DNA from: a virus
Length of the DNA: 44,287 nt
Strand: one strand, 5' to 3'
Virus record (IMG/VR): IMGVR_UViG_3300037467_000513
In this document: positions 1,520-24,918 of the stretch, piece by piece
How positions within the stretch are numbered: the first letter of the stretch is position 1
Layout of the letters: every line of letters begins with the position of its first letter
Notes under the pieces: generated by a model
Told to the model about the DNA's origin: nothing
What the model saw: only the letters and a program-made list of their open reading frames with translations
Databases searched by the model: none
Position numbers and translations under genes: made by a program

Positions 1520-3426
1520 CAAGTGACGATATCCGAAACATCATAGGTTAGATCGATACTCACCAACTCAACATCGAGCGGGACAAGTGATCCGCTGGTG
1601 ATCTGCACGGCGGGCGATAGCGCGTAACCCGCGCCCCCGACCGACTGCCATTGCTGCTTCGTCGATTTCTGGCCGGCCTGATCCCATTTCGAGACGTTCC
1701 AGACACCGGTATCCCAGGTATTGCCGCCTGGCACTTGCGTTGCGGCTGGTGCAGACGGTAATTCTATCTGATAGTCCGCCTGCAATGAAAGTTGTGGCGC
1801 AATGTCCGACGACGCGAGCAACGTAGAGCGCGCCAGCAGGCCGGTTTTGAGCGATGCAGGCGCTTTGAGCGGATCGAACAGCGGCACACACGATGCGGTG
1901 TAAGGCAGACCATCATCCGCGCCCGTCACTTCCGCTTCCACAATGCGCCCATTATCTGAGCCGAAGAATAGCCGTCCTTGGAAGGACAAGACGCAAAACG
2001 CATTCCAGCCTGTATACGGAGCCCATGAGCCGGTTCGCACGTTAGCAACCAGCATCGTGGGAGTCGCGCCAACTGGTGATGGCATCGTTATTGTCATCAT
2101 CTGCTGTGTCGGCCACACCTCGCAAGTCCATGCGGCAAACGAGCGGTTCGCGACATACTCATTCCATGCCACCTCAATCGGATACGACACGGCGACGGGC
2201 GACAGAGCGGCATAATCTCGCGTGAGAGACGCCGAAACCGGCAAAAAGCCGATATCGGTAGCCATCACAACGTCTCCGCCGGCCTTGATATGCGCCTTTG
2301 CGCCGAGCGGTCGCCCGGTGCGGTAAACGCCGACCTTGCTCCACGATGCCGCAACAGACGGATCGCTGCCCTGAAACACCGCAATTTCGCCCTCTGTCGT
2401 GACGAAAATGCATTGCTCCGACAAGCCGCCGCCGAGCGTTTCCAGCGACCACGCCGCGCCGAAAAGCAATGCACCGCCGCGCGTGAAGATGCCAGCCAAT
2501 GGCAGTTTTGTGGCCACGCCGGTCACGCTATCGACCGGCAGATACCACGCATTCAGACTGTTTTTCTCGACGTAGAAAATCCGGTTCTTATAGGTCCAAT
2601 TATAGGACAGGCTCGCCGTGTTGACGCCCGTGATGCCGTTGAACAGCAATGTCGCAGCGCCCGCCGTCGTGGCGCTTCCCGGCGCGGTGTTGTCGTCGGT
2701 GATTGTCTCGGACGCACCGAACGTGCCGGTAATCGTATCGAGCCAGAGCGTCCCCGTGGTGCCGTTGTCGATTACCTTGACGATGACACCAGTGGCCGCA
2801 GAACTCGCGCCTGTGAGCGTTTTCCCAACCGTAAATGGCGCGGTTTCGGTCGTGTAGTCGATTGCGTAGAGCGATGTTGACCCGATGGGGTAAAAATCCG
2901 TCCCGTTATAAATAAGCTTTTTGTCAGCGCCGTTCACAAGGTCAAGGAACACATCGCCGCTTGAGTTGGCGAACTGTACCGACGACCAGTCGCCAGATGT
3001 CAGGCCAGACACTGACGGCTGGACAGAACTGATGAAAGGAATGAACTTGTTGCCTTGATCATCAACAAAGACATTCCCGCCGCCATCGGTGAAATGCGTC
3101 TGCGCTACCGCGTTCGTCGCGTCGAAAATCCCCGTTGGAGTTGCCCCGAACAGCTTTTGATTGCTCGCATTCACATAGGCAAACAGCGAAACGACGTTCT
3201 CATTCATGCCACCGAGACGATTGAACGTCAGCGACCCGCGCCGCATCCGCAGTCCGGTTGCAGTCGGAAACCAATTTTCGATAACGAACGCGCCGTTTAG
3301 CGCCGAGCCGTCCGGCTTGCGCGCATTCGGCACCGCAAGGCTTTGGTTGCGAATCCAGCCGCCAACCGGCGCTGGAAACGACTTAAGCCGCTGCGGCCGG
3401 ACAGTTGCTTGGACTGGCTTCCTCAT
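1519..3426 (-). CDS. Tail tubular protein B-like (nozzle) candidate
   Basis: 635 aa. Size and position (after a ~235-aa protein, downstream of the capsid) match the T7-type gp11/gp12 order. ATGA overlap with the upstream gene. No motif-level proof. Confidence 0.45.
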   Translation of the reverse strand: MRKPVQATVRPQRLKSFPAPVGGWIRNQSLAVPNARKPDGSALNGAFVIENWFPTATGLRMRRGSLTFNRLGGMNENVVSLFAYVNASNQKLFGATPTGIFDATNAVAQTHFTDGGGNVFVDDQGNKFIPFISSVQPSVSGLTSGDWSSVQFANSSGDVFLDLVNGADKKLIYNGTDFYPIGSTSLYAIDYTTETAPFTVGKTLTGASSAATGVIVKVIDNGTTGTLWLDTITGTFGASETITDDNTAPGSATTAGAATLLFNGITGVNTASLSYNWTYKNRIFYVEKNSLNAWYLPVDSVTGVATKLPLAGIFTRGGALLFGAAWSLETLGGGLSEQCIFVTTEGEIAVFQGSDPSVAASWSKVGVYRTGRPLGAKAHIKAGGDVVMATDIGFLPVSASLTRDYAALSPVAVSYPIEVAWNEYVANRSFAAWTCEVWPTQQMMTITMPSPVGATPTMLVANVRTGSWAPYTGWNAFCVLSFQGRLFFGSDNGRIVEAEVTGADDGLPYTASCVPLFDPLKAPASLKTGLLARSTLLASSDIAPQLSLQADYQIELPSAPAATQVPGGNTWDTGVWNVSKWDQAGQKSTKQQWQSVGGAGYALSPAVQITSGSLVPLDVELVSIDLTYDVSDIVT

Positions 3427-4130
3427 GATCCGAGAGGCCCCGGATATGAGGCGCGAGCATCAACCCGCATACGCGCCGGACCAACGGCAATGATCCGTGA
3501 GCCCTTGTCGCGCGCGATCTCCTGCGCCAGCGCGATTTCGTAGTTCTTCAGATCCTCACCATACTCCTGCCGCTTCTGCGCCCGCCAGCGCCAGATCAAG
3601 CCGAGGGTGATGAGCCGGTCGCCAAGAAAGAACGTATCTCCGTCCGCCGAAAATTGAGGGCTGTTGCCGTTAACAACGTTCCTTGAGACGTAATAGAGCC
3701 GCGCGCTGGTGCCCGATGCCAGCGGCACGCCGTTGCCTTGGCTGATCTGGAATTGGCCACCAAGGATGATCCACCAGCCAGGGAATCCAGTCCCGGCATA
3801 AGTCTGAATATCGAGCCACTGATCAAGGTCGCGCGCCGGCTCAAACCGCCATTGCGTCCACGTCGCAGAGTGGACGCCTTCCTTGAGCAGCATTCGGTCG
3901 TAGTCGGACGGCAGATCGAATCCGGTGTTCGTCCCGTCGCCCGTAATCGTCCACAGCTTGGTGAGCGCGCGCCAGTCGTGCGCCTTCATGATGTCAACGG
4001 CAATCTCGGTCGCGAGGTCCGCTAGTTCGTTAGCGAATTCCACGTTCAAACCGTTCGGAGAAAACAGGCTGCCGGGCTTTTGACCCTGCAACCTGATCCC
4101 TGCCGATTGTGCCGCTGACAAAATGGTCAT
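3423..4130 (-). CDS. Tail tubular protein A-like (adaptor) candidate
   Basis: 235 aa. Called by position and size only. TAATG junction with the upstream gene. Confidence 0.4.
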   Translation of the reverse strand: MTILSAAQSAGIRLQGQKPGSLFSPNGLNVEFANELADLATEIAVDIMKAHDWRALTKLWTITGDGTNTGFDLPSDYDRMLLKEGVHSATWTQWRFEPARDLDQWLDIQTYAGTGFPGWWIILGGQFQISQGNGVPLASGTSARLYYVSRNVVNGNSPQFSADGDTFFLGDRLITLGLIWRWRAQKRQEYGEDLKNYEIALAQEIARDKGSRIIAVGPARMRVDARASYPGPLGS

Positions 4131-10411: not shown

Positions 10412-11820
10412 ATGCGGATCCTTGTCCCCTTGCCTTCCGGCACGGGCGGAATGATGAAGTGGCCGGGCGGCAGTACAATCGGCTTCTCAACAACCAGCGC
10501 CGGCACATTGCGCCACGACAGCGCCAGATAGCGGAACGCATCCGCCAAGTGGCTCGTCCAATCGTGGACTTCGTTAGCCTTGAAGGCCTTCTTTTCGTCG
10601 TTCCACTCGCGCCGATACTGTTCCAGCGCGGATATTCCTGTTTCCTCACAGCGCGGATGAAACACACATCGCGCCAGCGTCTTGCGCGCCGCGTTGATGC
10701 CATCCAGTTTCGTCGCGCTCGGCACCAGTTCAGGCCGCAAGCCATAATCGCGCATCGTCTCAACGCGCGTGCGACCTGTGCCCCATTCCTTCACCTTGGC
10801 GTCATGCGGCACAAAGTCAGCGCCCGCCGTCCAGCCGTGTTGTTCCGTGCGCTTGGCGACGATATCGGCATAATGATCAAGGCCAACGCCAGACGCCGTA
10901 TAGCAATCCAGAATGAACACCTGAGCGCCGACAACCTGAAACCACCAGATTGACGTATCGTCTCGGACGCCGATGTCCCAAGCCCGATGCACCATGCGGC
11001 CCGGTATGGCCTCGATCTCCGCTATGCGGCCTTCCTTCCGCACCGTCGCCATTTCACGAGCGTAGAACGCGCCCAAGATCGCAGCATTGAAGCTGCACTC
11101 GTATTCCTGCTCGAACTGAGCGCGGCCGATGTCCTCGCCGTAGAGGGCGATGTATTCCGCCAAACTCTCGGTTATCTGTTCCTGTGACAGCGCCCCGGTT
11201 TCATGAACCGTCGAGACTTCCGCAAACCAGCGCGGATTCGCTTTTGCCATGTCATACATGGCCTTGGCATGGTTACGCCCACGCGGCGTCGTGATGAATG
11301 CCGCGAAGCCGTTGTTTTCTTCCAGCATCGGCCGGTGATAAGCCCATGCAGATGGATTAGCCAAAGCCCATTCCGAATAGACGATACCGGCCACGCCAGC
11401 GCCGACCGTTGCGTCATACCGATCCGAACCGATGATCTGCCACGTTGACCCGCATTTGAGTTTGATGAGCATCTGCTGCTCATCCTTGCCTTCCCTGATC
11501 TCAGGCGGAAAAGCCTCATCAATGCGCCGCTTGCCCGTATGTGCGTTGATCGCGTTCCAGAGCGCCTTGCGGCCTTGTTCGTATTCCGGCAGACAATGCC
11601 AATAGGACGCAACGCGCTGATGGGCTATCTCGCATGTCGCAGCGAGCGTAATTTCGTCCTTTCCCCAGCGACGATGAGCAATCTCAATCGCTCGCTTGCC
11701 GCCGTTCACCAGGTATTCGTGGAACGGCCGCTGATACCAGCGAATCCGGCGTTCAATCTCCACGGGACTCGTAAACCGTTTTGAACAGCACCGGCCCGCC
11801 ATCGGCGCCAGTGTGAGCAA
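10408..11820 (-). CDS. terL: Terminase large subunit
   Basis: 470 aa. ATPase-like ...HRRWGKDEITL... followed by a nuclease-like C-terminal half. Start is uncertain: TTG 11820, ATG 11802 or GTG 11763, and all three overlap the terS end at 11753. Confidence 0.85.
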   Translation of the reverse strand: MLTLAPMAGRCCSKRFTSPVEIERRIRWYQRPFHEYLVNGGKRAIEIAHRRWGKDEITLAATCEIAHQRVASYWHCLPEYEQGRKALWNAINAHTGKRRIDEAFPPEIREGKDEQQMLIKLKCGSTWQIIGSDRYDATVGAGVAGIVYSEWALANPSAWAYHRPMLEENNGFAAFITTPRGRNHAKAMYDMAKANPRWFAEVSTVHETGALSQEQITESLAEYIALYGEDIGRAQFEQEYECSFNAAILGAFYAREMATVRKEGRIAEIEAIPGRMVHRAWDIGVRDDTSIWWFQVVGAQVFILDCYTASGVGLDHYADIVAKRTEQHGWTAGADFVPHDAKVKEWGTGRTRVETMRDYGLRPELVPSATKLDGINAARKTLARCVFHPRCEETGISALEQYRREWNDEKKAFKANEVHDWTSHLADAFRYLALSWRNVPALVVEKPIVLPPGHFIIPPVPEGKGTRIRI

Positions 11821-13929: not shown

Positions 13930-14451
13930 TTATCCGACGAACGGATTCGGAAGATTATCCCGCACCGGGTCATCCCAATGCCGTTCAACAAACGCGCTCC
14001 ACTTCTCGGACACGGCAAAGAGCCCCATTTCGCTCGTCATCCTAGAAACGATCCCAATGGCCGTTTCCGTATCCATGTAGTACCACTCGCCATGGGCGTG
14101 ATATTTTGATCCCGCGTACTTGTCGTGGATGGCCTTCTCTAGTTTCCGCGCGGCAGGACCATCCATCCAACGATACCAAACCATCCGAACGACATAGCCG
14201 TTCGATGTCTGGATTTCCTTTGAACGTTGCTTGGGGTTCTTCGTTATCCCAATCTTCGTCAACGAACCTGCCTCGGTGACATAGATCGCTGTTGGGCGGT
14301 CAAGCATCCTATCCACGTCGCGCGTCCACTCGTCTGGGTCCGCCTTAGCCCTCGACAAAACACCGCATGGTGCCTGTAACCTGATTTGCGCGGTCGTCCA
14401 ACCATGATCTGAATTGCCCCGTTTCGTGTTAGAATGAACTCGCGCTGCCAC
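13930..14451 (-). CDS. T5orf172 / GIY-YIG-like domain protein (copy 2)
   Basis: 173 aa. IYVTEAGSLTKIGITKNPKQRSKEIQ...ARKLEKAIHDKY...HGEWYYM fits the T5orf172 pattern. GC looks locally lower. Confidence 0.6.
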   Translation of the reverse strand: MAARVHSNTKRGNSDHGWTTAQIRLQAPCGVLSRAKADPDEWTRDVDRMLDRPTAIYVTEAGSLTKIGITKNPKQRSKEIQTSNGYVVRMVWYRWMDGPAARKLEKAIHDKYAGSKYHAHGEWYYMDTETAIGIVSRMTSEMGLFAVSEKWSAFVERHWDDPVRDNLPNPFVG

Positions 14452-19262: not shown

Positions 19263-19790
19263 TTACTCCTTACTCTCGCCCAAGTGAGCATCCACATGCG
19301 GCACGCTAGGCGCGCCCCGATCCATGCGCCGATAGATGGCCACGAAGTCGCCAATTGGCTTTCCCGCTTCCTTCCGCGCATTGACAACTTCAAAGAGTTC
19401 TTCAAGAAACTGGCGATACAGTCGCGATGCTTCAGCCCGCGCCTCAAGGATCGGCAGCATCTTGACGAGGAAGTAGTCTGGATCGTCCTTAGTTACTTCA
19501 CTCTTTGGGCGTTTGTCGTCTTCAATGGTGATTTCACCCGCGACAGTTTTTGCAATGACATCGCGGACAAATTCATTGTCCTCAAACCATTCCTTGTATT
19601 TGCGGTGTTCAGCACAGATTGTGTGGAGGTGCCGCTCAAGCGCGCGCGAGCCATCCACAATGGCTATCGCCGTCAACTTCTCAAGGTCATTCGACCGAAG
19701 TCCCGCGAGGCGCTCTTCCGGTTTGGTTGTAAAGCCGATCTTGACGCGACCCGGCGCGCCAACAAAATAGACTTTCCCGGCCCTGCTCAT
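19263..19790 (-). CDS. T5orf172 / GIY-YIG-like domain protein (copy 1)
   Basis: 175 aa. VYFVGAPGRVKIGFTTKPEERLAGLRS...ALERHLHTICAEHRKYKEWFE. Confidence 0.65.
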   Translation of the reverse strand: MSRAGKVYFVGAPGRVKIGFTTKPEERLAGLRSNDLEKLTAIAIVDGSRALERHLHTICAEHRKYKEWFEDNEFVRDVIAKTVAGEITIEDDKRPKSEVTKDDPDYFLVKMLPILEARAEASRLYRQFLEELFEVVNARKEAGKPIGDFVAIYRRMDRGAPSVPHVDAHLGESKE

Positions 19791-21174: not shown

Positions 21175-21257
21175 CCCCGCACCTCATCGATCAGCGCCCA
21201 TGCGAAGAGCGCGACAAGGACGACAAGCGCGATGTTGGCGAGGGTGTCGAAGGTCAT
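21171..21257 (-). CDS. 28-aa single-pass hydrophobic peptide (below ORF-track cutoff)
   Basis: Hand translation gives MTFDTLANIALVVLVALFAWALIDEVRG. Exact ATGA overlaps with both neighbouring genes. Confidence 0.45.
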   Translation of the reverse strand: MTFDTLANIALVVLVALFAWALIDEVRG

Positions 21258-22276
21258 GACGCCGCCCTTTCATGCGAGGGGGTGGAGAAACGAGCCGCAA
21301 CAATTGCATCGCGCTCTGCCTTCGGAAAGCCGCTTAAAAGCAACTTGCGACGGAGCTTGAACTTGGGCGATTTGCGATATCGATCAGAGGCGGCCTTAAG
21401 GGCGGCTTTGGTCTGCTCTGGCGTGGTGCTGGTTTGACGCGAGCTCGCTTTTCGTGTCCGCGCGCCGGACTTCACATCATGCCAATAGTCCTGAATATTG
21501 GTGATGCCAGACGCGATGTAGACATTCCCGACAGCATAGGCGCCGGTATCGCCATTGCGGCACATCTGATACCCGGCACCACGGCCGCGATCATCCCAAT
21601 GGCCGGAATGTTGCCAGATGCCCCACCACTGCCAGAGGTTCAATTCCCACGCGATACCGCGCTCAGCCGCGTTCTTTTTCTGGCACGAGAAAGCTCGTGT
21701 CGGCATTCGCATACTACGAAGGGCAACGTACTGATCCCAGCTACATCCCCACTTCGCCAAGGATTTTTGATTGCGCCGAGTTTCAAAGCGGCGGCGCTTC
21801 TCCTCGGCCTTAAAGTGCTGGCCGCCGTCCGCCCAATTCATTCCAAAATGCTTGGTGAGGATCTGCCGAACACGTTCACGCGTTATCGAGAATTTCTCGC
21901 CAATCGCTTGAAGGGTGTTTCCCGCCTTGTAGAGCGCGGCCATTTCTTGGGCGCGCGGGCTAACCTTTGTTTCGGCGCCGGTATAGGGCTGGCGAGGAAA
22001 TTTGATGCCGTATTGCTTCGCCAACCGGCAGATGTATCCGTATTGGATGCCGGTTTCTTGCGCTACTTGCCGCCGCGTGAGCCCCCGTGCCGCAAGATGT
22101 CGAAGATGATCGATCTTGCTCTCGCTCGACTTGCGGACCTGCACCCGCGCGTGTCGCGCGAGAACGTCAACGTAGTACGGCCCGATATTCAGAACCCAAG
22201 CGATCTCGGTTCGATTAAGGCCAGCGCTCGCGAACTCGGCAACGCTGGCAACATTGGTTGCGAACTGCCCAGTCAT
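21254..22276 (-). CDS. Multi-HTH DNA-binding regulator candidate
   Basis: 340 aa. At least three HTH-like segments: GLNRTEIAWVLNIG, GLTRRQVAQETGIQYGYICRLAKQYGI and GNTLQAIGEKFSITRERVRQIL (sigma-70 region-4-like). Also a W-rich C-terminal domain. Second gene of the early operon. Confidence 0.5.
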   Translation of the reverse strand: MTGQFATNVASVAEFASAGLNRTEIAWVLNIGPYYVDVLARHARVQVRKSSESKIDHLRHLAARGLTRRQVAQETGIQYGYICRLAKQYGIKFPRQPYTGAETKVSPRAQEMAALYKAGNTLQAIGEKFSITRERVRQILTKHFGMNWADGGQHFKAEEKRRRFETRRNQKSLAKWGCSWDQYVALRSMRMPTRAFSCQKKNAAERGIAWELNLWQWWGIWQHSGHWDDRGRGAGYQMCRNGDTGAYAVGNVYIASGITNIQDYWHDVKSGARTRKASSRQTSTTPEQTKAALKAASDRYRKSPKFKLRRKLLLSGFPKAERDAIVAARFSTPSHERAAS

Positions 22277-22467
22277 GCGGCACTCCGGGAATGCGAACGC
22301 ATGAAGTCGCGAATTTGCTGCTCAGTATCGGGCCAGATGCGCCGACCGGCGCGAAGTCGCTCGACAAGACGGCCATTCTTGACGGCGAGAATCCCAAAGC
22401 GATGCGGGCCGATCTTATTCAGCCGCATGTACCGCTCGATTTCTGTAAGCAGGGTGTTTTTGCTCAT
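22273..22467 (-). CDS. Cro-like small DNA-binding protein (first early gene)
   Basis: 64 aa from ATG 22467. The GTG 22509 start in the ORF track would lie inside the operators. Divergent from the repressor gene. No SD, and it sits very close to the predicted -10. Confidence 0.55.
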   Translation of the reverse strand: MSKNTLLTEIERYMRLNKIGPHRFGILAVKNGRLVERLRAGRRIWPDTEQQIRDFMRSHSRSAA

Positions 22468-22477
22468 GATAAGGAGC

Positions 22478-22522
22478 CGTGTAACACGCTTTAGCGTGCT
22501 AGTCAACACACGCTATAACGTG
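22478..22522. promoter_or_regulatory. Immunity-switch operators O1/O2 and leftward promoter (OR/PR-like)
   Basis: O1 is CACGCTTTAGCGTG (22485..22498). O2 is CACGCTATAACGTG (22509..22522). On the minus strand: TTGACT (22506..22501), 2 nt, O1, 1 nt, TACACG (22483..22478). Confidence 0.6.
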
Positions 22523-22551
22523 CCGCCAGTTCCCGCGCGGCGTGCTACAAA

Positions 22552-22902
22552 ATGCGTATGAATCAGGACTGGTACGGCAGGTTTGTTGGCGCGATCCGCA
22601 AGGATGGGCGCGACCTAAAGACGATCAGCAAGGCGGCTGGTTGCGGGCCGAACTATGTTCAACAGATCATCAAGGACAACAAGCGGCCGACCGTGGATCG
22701 GTTTATGGCTATTCTCCACGTGCTCGGAAGCCCGTCAGCCCTCTACGTTCTTACCGGGCACGAGCCGAGCCCGGATGATGAAGATTTCATTCGCCTGTTT
22801 TCTGGCCTAGATCCGAAACTCCGGGCGGAAGCGCATCGTTTTTTCCGCGCACTACAAGATCGGCCAGGTACTCAAGGGCCTTCCGACGAGCCTCAGAATT
22901 AA
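22552..22902 (+). CDS. CI-like repressor (XRE-family HTH)
   Basis: 116 aa. HTH segment LKTISKAAGCGPNYVQQIIKDNKRPTVDRFMAIL. Divergent from the Cro-like gene across the operators. Confidence 0.7.
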   Translation: MRMNQDWYGRFVGAIRKDGRDLKTISKAAGCGPNYVQQIIKDNKRPTVDRFMAILHVLGSPSALYVLTGHEPSPDDEDFIRLFSGLDPKLRAEAHRFFRALQDRPGTQGPSDEPQN

Positions 22903-23068
22903 GTTTTAGCCATTCGTCGTATAGCGCGAGCAGTTCATACATATCTGACCCCGGCCCCAAATGGATGTTCTCTATTCGTTCATGCAATCAGAAGGTGGTT
23001 ATATTTTCAAGGATAGAAATCCTAAAATTAAAGAAGTTCGCAAAATAAATGTTTAAGGGATCGTGAAA

Positions 23069-23275
23069 ATGAAAATACAATCCCGAGTAAAATCTACCGC
23101 ACCGGCCCCGCCTCCGTTGGACCCTAAGGAAGCCCTTCGACACATCAAGACGTTAGCGTTGGCGGCTCAGGGTAGTTCCGACATGGACATGATCCACGAG
23201 CACGTCAGGATCATTCTGTTGCTTGTGGATAAGGCGCTGCCGCGTCGTCGGCGGTCGGATCGCCATGGGGATTAA
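23069..23275 (+). CDS. Small hypothetical protein of the repressor-linked cassette
   Basis: 68 aa from ATG 23069, with AAGGGA 8 nt upstream. The ORF track starts at GTG 23063. Preceded by an AT-rich spacer. Confidence 0.5.
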   Translation: MKIQSRVKSTAPAPPPLDPKEALRHIKTLALAAQGSSDMDMIHEHVRIILLLVDKALPRRRRSDRHGD

Positions 23276-23298
23276 AGCGGCTGTAGGGGCGAGATGAC

Positions 23299-23913
23299 GT
23301 GAAACAGCCGCCACGATACGTTCGGAGCCCGGCCAAATACACTATCCCAGATGATATAGCTCAAGGCATTGGGCATCTTATGGTGCGGTGGGCCTACTTG
23401 GAACATGCGCTGCAAACCATTGTTTGGATGCTCGTAGGCGTGACCCAGCCTGTGGGGAGACTCGCTATTCGCGAGCCGAGGGTGCAAGAGCGCGTCCGCT
23501 TGATTGTTGAATTATCCGATCTAAAGGGCCTCGATATCCCCGCAAAATTTTTCAAGTCGATTTGCAGCCATGCCGAAGATATCGGTAGAAATCGCGATCT
23601 TTTGGCGCACGGCCACTGGATTTTCGATGACGAAAATTCGAACTGGCAGGTTGTTTTAACTAGAGGAAAATGGTCTGACGATGAGCCGCACCCCAGCGCT
23701 AAAAGCATTGTCCCAGAGGCGTTGATTGTAACGTCAGAAGCGCTCGGGAAAATTCAAGCTCAACTCGACGAACTTATCAAGATGGTGGAGCTTATCGCGG
23801 AACGATTTGAAACCCTGCTGCCCCCACCGCCCGAAGTACATCCATCGCAATTTCCATCGAAGTCTCCCACTCCCAATCGACGCGCCACAAAACATCAGAA
23901 ACCGCCTCGATAG
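23299..23913 (+). CDS. HEPN-like (R-x4-6-H motif) protein, candidate exclusion/abortive-infection effector
   Basis: 204 aa with a GTG start. Motif ...SHAEDIGRNRDLLAHGHW... fits RN-type HEPN signatures (DUF4145/Abi-like). The C-terminal ~35 aa are P/S/K-rich. Family not verified. Confidence 0.45.
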   Translation: MKQPPRYVRSPAKYTIPDDIAQGIGHLMVRWAYLEHALQTIVWMLVGVTQPVGRLAIREPRVQERVRLIVELSDLKGLDIPAKFFKSICSHAEDIGRNRDLLAHGHWIFDDENSNWQVVLTRGKWSDDEPHPSAKSIVPEALIVTSEALGKIQAQLDELIKMVELIAERFETLLPPPPEVHPSQFPSKSPTPNRRATKHQKPPR

Positions 23914-23998
23914 CTTCCGGCGGGATGGCTTTCACTACATCGCGGCTGGATAGCATCTCCCCCCCACCGGGCGGCACCTTCCAAGCATCGTCGTTCAT
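23792..23998 (-). CDS. Possible convergent small ORF overlapping the 3' end of the HEPN-like gene
   Basis: 68 aa from ATG 23998 (MNDDAWKVPPGGGEMLSSRDVV...). AAGG lies ~9 nt upstream. 122-nt antisense overlap. It could be a shadow ORF. Confidence 0.25.
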   Translation of the reverse strand: MNDDAWKVPPGGGEMLSSRDVVKAIPPEAIEAVSDVLWRVDWEWETSMEIAMDVLRAVGAAGFQIVPR

Positions 23999-24013
23999 CT
24001 GTACCAACCTTCC

Positions 24014-24037
24014 GCCCGGCTCATGCCGGGCTTTTTT
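24014..24037 (+). terminator. Intrinsic terminator ending the repressor/cassette transcript
   Basis: GCCCGGC-tcat-GCCGGGC followed by TTTTTT. Confidence 0.8.
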
Positions 24038-24080
24038 GTGCCTGCATCATAGGGCGCTGTGCGGCGACACACAACAAAAA

Positions 24081-24131
24081 CACGCTAAAGCGTTTTGGCC
24101 TATTGCGCGACACGCCATAGCGTGCTAGAAC
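24081..24131 (+). promoter_or_regulatory. Second operator cluster O3/O4 with rightward promoter (OL/PL-like)
   Basis: O3 is CACGCTAAAGCGTT (24081..24094). O4 is CACGCCATAGCGTG (24111..24124). Geometry: TTGCGC (24103..24108), 2 nt, O4, 1 nt, TAGAAC (24126..24131). The 11-mer TAGCGTGCTAG is shared with 22492..22502. Confidence 0.55.
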
Positions 24132-24163
24132 ACCTCCATCAACCAACGATGGAGCCGGGCAAG

Positions 24164-24523
24164 ATGGGCTACTACTCCCCCAACCCGCATTACGCGCCGG
24201 ATGATTTCAGCGACGACACCAAGCGCGTTGACGAAGCGCAGGCGATTGCCGGTCGGTATTTCCGAGACGCCACCAAGCCGCAAGCTGCCAAGTACGCCGA
24301 GCAGATGGCGGTTATCCGTCCCTACGCTGGCTCGCCCAAGTGGGAACGCGCCCGCGAGACTGCAACGCAGGAATATCGCGCCAGCACGGAAGCTGCTGCG
24401 GCTCTCTGCAACGAGACGTACCGCAAGGTTTACGAAACCGGCGAAGTCTCGGACGAACTCTCGTACCGCTGGGATGCTCTGATCGCTGCGAACGCGCCTG
24501 TCGTGACGGAGTGCGCGGCATGA
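24164..24523 (+). CDS. Hypothetical protein (first gene of rightward early operon)
   Basis: 119 aa from ATG 24164, with GGAG 10 nt upstream. The ORF-track start at 24095 lies inside the operator/promoter. Confidence 0.6.
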   Translation: MGYYSPNPHYAPDDFSDDTKRVDEAQAIAGRYFRDATKPQAAKYAEQMAVIRPYAGSPKWERARETATQEYRASTEAAAALCNETYRKVYETGEVSDELSYRWDALIAANAPVVTECAA

Positions 24524-24918
24524 CCAGCAAGGCAGGACATACGGCGGGGCCGGCTACGGTACTGCGTTCGAAGCGCCCATCTGATGGCGAGCATGACTTC
24601 GCGGTAAACTGCGAAGGCGCTCCGGTGATAGCTGAGGCCTTCGGCCGAGCCGCAGATGGCGAAGGCTCTATCCTTCCGGCCGAGGCCAACGCCCGCCTGA
24701 TCGCGGAAGCCTTCAACGTCGCGCACGAAACCGGCCTGACGCCGCGCCAGTTGGCGGAGCGGTGCGGGAAGTTGGAGGCGATGCTCAAACTGGCGCTGCC
24801 AATTATCAGCGATAGGGCCGCCGGTGGCAGAATGTTGACGCCTCGGGAGCACGCAATAGGTGTGTTTCAGAAAATCGACACAGCCCTATCCAAGGCTACG
24901 GCTGGGGGTGCGGTATGA
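24520..24918 (+). CDS. Hypothetical protein
   Basis: 132 aa from ATG 24520 (ATGA overlap). Contains an EANARLIAEAF motif that I recall from other uncharacterised phage proteins. Confidence 0.6.
   Translation: MTSKAGHTAGPATVLRSKRPSDGEHDFAVNCEGAPVIAEAFGRAADGEGSILPAEANARLIAEAFNVAHETGLTPRQLAERCGKLEAMLKLALPIISDRAAGGRMLTPREHAIGVFQKIDTALSKATAGGAV

Follow-up and report, generated by a model that had tools for sequence, protein, structure and literature searches.

The stretch analysed here, hereafter the window, is the whole of the IMG/VR virus record IMGVR_UViG_3300037467_000513 (44,287 nucleotides, nt), and the element in question is the cargo that it carries downstream of its CI-like repressor gene: a gene for a 204-amino-acid (aa) protein with a conserved Rx4H motif like that of HEPN ribonucleases (RNases), and a small open reading frame (ORF) that converges on it and encodes an acidic protein. 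On the basis of PHROG matches (portal, major head and virion proteins, endolysin and integrase) and of the gene calls on the source contig, we consider the window an essentially complete temperate phage, and gene order together with these matches and calls reveals a layout that is lambda in mirror image. The immunity region comprises the following features (loci used for comparison carry L numbers; L030 is a sibling phage).

22273..22467 (ATG at 22467), minus strand: cro-like small ORF of 64 aa from the ORF list, separated by operator cluster 1 from the divergent CI-like gene
22484..22526, no strand: operator cluster 1 (OR-like), palindrome ACACGCTwwAGCGTG twice, at 22484-22498 and 22508-22522
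22552..22902, plus strand: CI-like helix-turn-helix (HTH) repressor gene, 116 aa, without an S24 domain, with HTH_3 and phrog_2328 matches
22903..23068, plus strand: spacer rich in AT (38.6% GC), kept from 22965 rightwards together with the 68-aa ORF in L030
23069..23275, plus strand: basic ORF of 68 aa (isoelectric point, pI, 10.5), ATG start, backbone gene of the immunity operon
23289..24136, no strand: mosaic cargo segment that differs from L030, containing operator cluster 2 and the terminator in addition to the HEPN-like gene with its convergent ORF
23299..23913, plus strand: gene of the 204-aa HEPN-like protein, GTG start, folded core at about residues 17-173, C-terminal Pro-rich tail overlapping the convergent ORF
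23593..23610, plus strand: codons of R99-D100-L-L-A-H104, the Rx4H motif conserved in 149 of 150 members
23795..23998 (stop codon 23792-23794, ATG at 23998), minus strand: convergent acidic ORF, 68 aa, pI 4.3, sharing 122 nt with the 3' end of the HEPN-like gene
24014..24037, plus strand: intrinsic terminator of the immunity operon from the terminator scan, hairpin 24014..24031 with 7 G-C pairs, then a T-run
24046..24074, minus strand: candidate weak leftward promoter for the convergent ORF, TTGTGT-17-TATGAT, picked by eye and below the scan threshold
24080..24128, no strand: operator cluster 2 (OL-like), same palindrome twice, at 24080-24094 and 24110-24124, preceding the rightward early operon

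The immunity operon thus runs in the order CI-like gene, 68-aa ORF, cargo and terminator. From operator cluster 1 leftwards, a minus-strand operon leads from the cro-like ORF through a gene for a 340-aa multi-HTH protein and DnaA_C-, RusA- and NinB-type genes to the structural genes, and to the right of cluster 2 a plus-strand early operon ends with the integrase gene. Within the 44 kb the operator palindrome is confined to the two clusters, with 8 strand matches where 0.21 would be expected and none of the shuffled sequences reaching 8, and we therefore take these to be genuine paired operator clusters. The terminator hairpin (fold z = -3.06) is more stable than 200/200 shuffles, and the CI-like ORF matched Pfam HTH_3 (E=2.4e-4, below the cut-off) and the PHROG transcriptional repressor phrog_2328 (E=1.7e-3); an Rfam scan of 22000-24600 returned no credible RNA family. 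In lambda, the exclusion genes rexA-rexB are co-transcribed with cI and lie between OR and OL. The stretch from the CI-like gene through the 68-aa and 204-aa ORFs to the terminator occupies this cI-rexA-rexB position, in that the cargo follows the repressor gene in the same orientation, a terminator closes it and one operator type forms the clusters on either side of it, with the early operons mirrored. This confirms the position that the initial annotation of this DNA had assigned to the cargo, and the CI-like gene, spacer, both plus-strand ORFs, terminator and operator clusters on which that annotation had relied are all in place. Its description of the module as low in GC holds for the spacer (38.6% versus 58.6% in the whole window) and mildly for the 204-aa gene (51.9%), but not for the 68-aa ORF, which at 56% resembles the backbone.

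The 204-aa ORF has its GTG start at the same position as its homologues, and its core differs from that of the L003 homologue by 40/23/92 changes at the three codon positions; on account of this strong third-position bias we regard it as a real gene under purifying selection. We found 12 close homologues. Searched against 1.84 billion representatives, a profile made from them matched 1490 representative clusters at E<=1e-3, of which 569 reached E<=1e-10, with cluster names that were either missing or 'hypothetical protein' and a Pfam domain in none. Scans of the 204-aa, 68-aa and convergent ORFs against Pfam, PADLOC, PHROG and NCBIfam assigned no family, and PADLOC-DB v2, which covers the described defence systems, gave no match for the window proteins at E<=1. 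Likewise, blastn and tblastn searches of 50,697 GenBank phages and 72,556 plasmids with the region, the 204-aa protein, the family consensus, P0175 and the 68-aa protein were without a match, and a scan of the broader family alignment (A3) against IMG/VR revealed no relative. Across 150 diverse members, P17, G25, E35, G53, R54, R99, H104, W107, G123 and P139 are near-invariant: R99 and H104 are each present in 149/150, and position 100 is D in 115, N in 26 and H in 8 of them. The motif, contained in the peptide SHAEDIGRNRDLLAHGHW (residues 90-107 of the 204-aa protein), is invariant in the 12 close homologues. The initial annotation had allowed for both an R-x6-H and an R-x4-H reading; the latter (R99 to H104) is the conserved one, whereas R97, the Arg of the former, varies in the family. 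Judged by sequence conservation, then, the 204-aa protein belongs to a large family lacking annotation, of which Rx4H is the most conserved feature.

HEPN domains are four-helix up-down bundles with a variable insert placed elsewhere, defined by an Rx4-6H motif at the end of helix-3 in which the residue after R is mostly N, D or H; another acidic residue that is conserved, as a rule in E-x3-[KR], lies upstream of the motif, and HEPN RNases are metal-independent and depend on the R and the H, usually across a dimer interface (PMC3710099). In the 204-aa family, 149/150 members have Rx4H with a polar D, N or H after the R. An AlphaFold2 model from the 150-sequence alignment (predicted local distance difference test, pLDDT, 93.9; predicted template modelling score 0.84) displays long helices at residues 18-46, 62-75, 82-104 and 146-173 with a three-stranded insert between the last two, and by its helix boundaries R99-H104 closes the third long helix. 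Because both the motif with its D/N/H and the position at the end of the third helix match the published definition (PMC3710099), they fit HEPN. Position 35, E in the window protein, is acidic in 146/150 members and lies in the first long helix, not obviously in helix 2, and position 39 is R or K in only 29/150, with Q or S being commoner. At E<=0.1 the set of 150 members reached 39 Pfam families, of which HEPN_RiboL-PSP (PF18735, of PD-T4-2, ApeA and related systems) is one of only two that matched more than one member (best E=0.0093). The family consensus, too, matches it best, over an alignment that extends to the motif and scores a sub-threshold 11.5 bits against a gathering threshold of 28.4. 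One of ten subfamily consensus sequences matches Pfam HEPN_MAE_28990 at the motif, weakly, and 15/20 of the sub-threshold PADLOC matches of members are to HEPN-bearing models (PD-T4-2_B, CARF_HEPN, Csx1, Csm6), PD-T4-2 being listed as bearing PF18735 (PMC10952713). We hold it to be reasonably probable that the family lies within the HEPN superfamily, where it is probably a new family lacking annotation.

The recurrent neighbour of the HEPN-like gene is the acidic ORF that converges on its 3' end, which the initial annotation had missed and which the source annotation did not call in this contig (GC at codon positions 1/2/3 of 0.67/0.45/0.61). A counterpart is present at 11/15 distinct HEPN-like loci, phage and chromosomal, in the same overlapping register and at identities down to ~30%, with a conserved core, (I/V)x(V/I)TPEMIxAG...D..F.S.EEIAxxVxxAM, and uniformly acidic products (pI 4.1-4.6); a hidden Markov model (HMM) built from nine copies also finds that of L017 (E=1.7e-9) and, weakly, L012. 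In the core outside the overlap, the L016 and L017 copies differ by 19/14/30 changes at the three codon positions, including 12 synonymous codon changes, and this third-position bias and the synonymous changes indicate that the ORF is protein-coding. At E<=0.01, a profile search with the acidic family retrieved 708 called proteins, 55-100 aa long and all without a Pfam domain, and a profile search of PDB sequences found nothing meaningful. In the 204-aa protein the Pro-rich tail is conserved (PPPEVHPSQFP), which may mirror constraint on the other strand, as far as the sequences tell. The Shine-Dalgarno sequence (GGAAGG) and the ATG at 23998 directly follow the reverse complement of the terminator, which on the minus strand therefore sits just upstream of the ORF start here as well as in L003. 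Position 24008 and the OL-like operators delimit the interval open to any promoter of the convergent ORF. The by-eye candidate at 24046..24074 is in this interval, and in L003 a scan-positive leftward promoter-like site occupies the equivalent place. In chromosomal loci (L001, at 10700-10735; L009, L013 and L002), a DNA motif, ATTATAACCTTGACAAAG, with translations 'IITLTK', lies upstream of the convergent ORF; it holds a TTGACA -35-like hexamer on the strand of that ORF and, by its sequence, is probably the ORF's promoter or operator.

The family gene recurs behind phage repressors. L003 and L004, whose protein is 71% identical, carry an HTH_3 gene on the minus strand, followed by an S24 repressor gene, an ORF of 110 aa and the homologue on the plus strand and by the convergent ORF on the minus strand; in L003 a plus-strand terminator and, beyond the convergent ORF, divergent promoter-like sites complete the arrangement. 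In L016 (29% identical), a cro-like HTH_3 gene on the minus strand is followed by an S24 repressor gene on the plus strand, the homologue on the same strand 31 nt further downstream and the convergent ORF on the minus strand. Three independent phages (the window, L003/L004 and L016) thus have the family gene in the same slot next to different repressors. That this slot holds variable cargo is indicated by L030, whose immunity region (2463-3778 of IMG/VR 3300037418_000425) consists of repressor, spacer, 68-aa ORF, cargo, terminator and operators. L030 is heteroimmune, with a 130-aa HTH_31 repressor and different operators of the ACAGAAnTTCTGT type, but its 68-aa protein is 93% identical, and the DNA matching window positions 22965-23288 (the right part of the spacer and the whole 68-aa ORF) is 94% identical. 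In blastn, the two phages cease to align at 23288, which is 11 nt short of the GTG start of the 204-aa gene, and align again from 24137; in L030 the 68-aa ORF is followed by an unrelated 131-aa gene of no family with a terminator of its own. As L030 keeps the 68-aa ORF and swaps the next gene, we take this ORF to be part of the immunity-operon backbone and the slot behind it to be variable cargo. The 68-aa ORF is coding-like, with the same codon-position GC pattern (0.62/0.43/0.62) as the repressor gene, and its relatives are confined to this phage lineage and L030.

Outside phages, homologues of the HEPN-like gene are flanked by IS1595 transposase genes in L001, L009 (on both sides), L013 and L014. 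At chromosomal loci a second small gene, divergent and directly upstream of the HEPN-like gene, is frequent: it encodes a protein of pI ~11 with the sequence EIEFxPDAxERFERAVKVVAKSPPQHR and a Lys-rich tail, has no Pfam match, and is found in L001, L002, L009, L012, L013 and L018-L021 and weakly in L014. This basic protein may be a DNA-binding regulator. The coordinates within these loci are as follows.

IS1595 transposase genes: L001 8253-9203; L009 4133-5107 and 6817-7746; L013 2658-3632 and 4602-5309; L014 3280-4242; L024 6409-7356
Basic divergent ORF, minus strand: L001 9841-10002; L002 1640-1810; L009 5853-6002; L012 116-298; L013 5823-5987; L018 1385-1558

In L009, the transposase genes on both sides of the HEPN-like gene give the locus a composite-transposon-like appearance, and IS1595 also lies by members of the small partner family. 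Two unrelated loci, L001 (9509-9790, plus strand) and L014 (4537-4821, plus strand), further contain one ORF each (93 and 94 aa, respectively; homologous by BLASTP at E=1e-6) that belongs to no family and lies between an IS1595 transposase gene and the divergent small ORF. In L017 a second HEPN-like ORF (2025-2612, plus strand; 'IRNRFAHS'; MtlR at a sub-threshold E=7.5e-4; DUF4145) is located ~400 nt downstream of the family member, which suggests that the two form a small defence cluster.

We propose that the cargo slot holds a mobile two-gene unit composed of a gene for a ~200-aa standalone protein and a convergent, 3'-overlapping gene for a ~60-aa acidic protein. The former would most likely adopt a HEPN-type fold with R99, D100 and H104 forming an Rx4H ribonuclease site, and would be co-transcribed with the repressor gene in the lysogen, reading through to the terminator at 24014-24037. 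By analogy with HepS and Butters gp57r (see below), it could be an RNase that works as a toxin or abortive-infection effector and stays latent until a superinfecting phage triggers it. The acidic partner, whose transcription would come from the other side, close to the OL-like operators, may restrain or tune the HEPN-like protein, either as a protein or via the convergent antisense overlap. To this composite, in which a mobile solo-HEPN toxin or defence gene expressed in lysogeny and its small acidic modulator occupy a rex-like cargo slot, we assign an even chance; of its elements, the slot, the mobility of the cargo (the L030 swap and IS1595), the Rx4H motif and the recurrent acidic convergent ORF are shown by the data. 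That the HEPN-like gene protects the lysogen or functions as a toxin is plausible by analogy. We also speculate that, if the partner promoter were repressor-controlled, the partner would be made mainly upon prophage induction and the phage's own lytic cycle would be spared. The corresponding self/non-self switch, in which an RNase from the repressor operon aborts foreign infections, an induction-only partner disarms it for the own lytic cycle, and the same pair under control of the divergent basic protein serves IS1595-associated chromosomal islands, strikes us as distinctly improbable in its entirety.

Several results weigh against the composite. As regards the fold, significant similarity in profile or structure to an established HEPN family was absent, with all profile matches lying below curated cut-offs; nine of the ten subfamily consensus sequences gave noise only against Pfam, the family profile found no HEPN chain among PDB sequences, and Foldseek of the pLDDT 93.9 model against 350,542 PDB chains returned a best E of 0.43 and template modelling (TM) scores of <=0.38, with HEPN absent from the top 50. 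Thus, while the model has the motif where the third long helix ends, the HEPN structure that the initial annotation had anticipated did not emerge from Foldseek: both this model and one with a pLDDT of 77.6 retrieved generic helical bundles only from the PDB, and a search of BFVD gave a single unnamed 159-aa viral protein, A0A4Y5TZQ9 (E=3.5e-4), with no functional information. As regards expression and partnership, a sigma-70-type promoter scan of 22200-24400 passed no site, so that expression of either gene is no more than presumed; the convergent ORF is absent by HMM from L010/L011, L018-L021, L022 and L023 (4/15 loci); two sampled members of the partner family, P0197 (L024/L025) and P0296 (L026-L029, a phage), occur without a HEPN-like neighbour; and codon-position differences within the 122-nt overlap are flat (8/10/12). 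The negative searches, which came up empty in spite of a confident model, would be accounted for if the protein were not a nuclease but a helical bundle whose conserved R and H serve ligand or protein binding or lysis-lysogeny regulation, with a convergent likeness to HEPN. The beta-hairpin insert and the conserved G53-R54, R58-x-P60-R61, W107, G123 and P139, which are not generic HEPN features, as well as the location of the gene in a regulatory region, agree with such a role. We nonetheless judge it unlikely, given that the exact Rx4H with its D/N/H is so nearly universal and sits at the canonical structural position, that HEPN is the only recurrent theme among the weak matches, and that occurrence outside phages, beside IS elements, speaks against a phage-specific regulator.

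The irregular distribution of the partner bears on two further alternatives. The convergent ORF could be a mere frequent neighbour, or an artefact of reading the antisense strand, and the HEPN-like protein could act alone, as HepS does; the four loci without the ORF, the small proteins found apart from HEPN-like genes, the flat signal in the overlap and the missing call in the source annotation are all compatible with this. However, the same register at 11 of the 15 loci, in phages and chromosomes and down to ~30% identity, the third-position bias with 12 synonymous changes between L016 and L017 in the core outside the overlap, and the 708 called homologues render it rather unlikely. Alternatively, the pair could be an addiction or stabilisation module in which a HEPN-type toxin and an acidic antitoxin retain prophages and IS1595 islands, with no role against other phages. 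In its favour, the pair occurs both on prophages and beside IS1595 transposases, a small acidic partner stands beside a larger protein with many conserved arginines, and HEPN toxins of toxin-antitoxin (TA) systems are well known (PMC7641770 and PMC4621449). Conversely, the genes are convergent and not co-transcribed like type II TA pairs, the four HEPN-like genes lacking a partner are hard to square with an unrestrained toxin, and partner-family members occur alone, all of which makes us doubt this alternative, which we think has a low probability. Most improbable is the model put forward by the initial annotation, in which the 68-aa and 204-aa ORFs form a horizontally acquired two-component cassette of an effector and a small sensor or antitoxin. 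The two ORFs are indeed adjacent, co-oriented and 23 nt apart between repressor and terminator, downstream of an AT-rich spacer, but in L030 the 68-aa ORF precedes different cargo and the break in homology falls between the two ORFs, the GC content of the 68-aa ORF is backbone-like, in L016 the homologue directly follows the CI gene, and in L003 a different 110-aa gene intervenes. Moreover, tblastn with the 68-aa protein found nothing near the homologues in L001-L004, and the later loci likewise have no 68-aa ORF, so that no homologue of the 68-aa protein stands beside any other family member. This refutes the cassette by the standard that the initial annotation had itself set, namely a lack of co-occurrence of the two genes outside this genome. 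The 68-aa ORF is independent of the HEPN-like gene and is not its partner, a place that falls instead to the recurrent convergent acidic ORF.

Returning to the composite of a solo-HEPN gene and its acidic modulator, we compared it with known systems. Neither ORF has homology to RexA or RexB in the PHROG, PADLOC and Pfam scans, and unlike lambda Rex the proposed effector would, by analogy, be an RNase rather than a membrane ion channel, and the two cargo genes do not share a strand. HepS of the Salmonella prophage Gifsy-1 is a solo HEPN abortive-infection anticodon nuclease whose expression from the prophage is constitutive and whose activator is a tail-tip protein; it thus provides a precedent for a latent HEPN protein triggered by a phage protein (PMC13043305). 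The 204-aa protein resembles HepS in being prophage-encoded, standalone and ~200 aa long with the Rx4H at nearly the same position (R99-H104 versus R100-H105 in HepS), but it has no detectable similarity to it, neither the PDB profile search nor Foldseek against the PDB returned a HEPN entry, and no HEPN-like ORF is recognisable in the Gifsy-1 LT2 record. Mycobacteriophage Butters gp57r is a small standalone prophage protein with RDRCAH at residues 94-99; its HEPN call comes from weak motif-anchored HHpred matches only, and it is a lysogen-expressed defence against heterotypic phages (bioRxiv 10.1101/2023.01.03.522681). By contrast to the 204-aa gene, gp57r belongs to a phage of a different host phylum, has no detectable homology to it and lies antisense within another gene, far from the repressor. 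The PF18735 systems differ from the cargo not only by the score, which is far below threshold, but also in domain architecture and partners. The pairing of a HEPN-type effector with a neighbouring gene recalls HepT-MntA and RnlA-RnlB, whose neighbour restrains the effector (PMC7641770 and PMC8266594); here, however, the partner is neither an MNT nucleotidyltransferase nor RnlB-like, but ~60 aa long, acidic and convergent with a 3' overlap, not operonic. The arrangement also departs from a type II TA pair, in that the partner is convergent, absent at 4/15 loci and drawn from a family that occurs alone. No significant test places the protein in RexA/B, HepS, PF18735 or a PADLOC system. By analogy, the 204-aa protein most resembles the solo-HEPN prophage defences and would work like a rex-type lysogeny moron, while the arrangement with a convergent, overlapping, acidic partner from a broad small-protein family is unusual.

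Elsewhere in the leftward operon, the minus-strand ORF at 22273..22467 (MSKNTLLTEIERYMRL...) would be the natural cro-like gene that opens it, and Pfam and PHROG scans gave no family match for this ORF. In the interval 22258-22509 the JGI source annotation instead calls a 67-aa plus-strand ORF (22291-22494) opposite to it, and one of the two calls is probably wrong. The second gene of this operon (21254-22276, minus strand) encodes the 340-aa protein, which has three HTH-type matches (Sigma70_r4, HTH_23 and HTH_7) and, at its C-terminus, a phrog_16521 domain. Pfam flags on the source contig also point to two genes with T5orf172/MUG113 domains (13930-14307 and 19263-19790, minus strand) in the leftward operon, beside HNH and GapR-like genes. 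A minus-strand ORF of 66 aa at 22787..22987 was rejected as a gene, as its GC at the third codon position is atypical and it is without homologues.

For the annotation of this phage, our analysis assigns the 68-aa ORF to the backbone, adds one real small gene that had gone uncalled and sets the boundaries of the cargo at 23289-24136. If the 204-aa protein is an active HEPN RNase, it would add a family of ~1,500 clusters (at 50% identity), for which Pfam, PADLOC, PHROG and NCBIfam hold no model, to the prophage-borne solo-HEPN defences and toxins, and alphaproteobacterial phages would repeatedly have taken up members of this family in the rex-like slot downstream of CI. How a prophage spares its own induction from such a weapon is a question raised by the work on HepS (PMC13043305), and the convergent acidic partner, overlooked by gene callers, is a possible way for the prophage to keep its weapon off its own induction.

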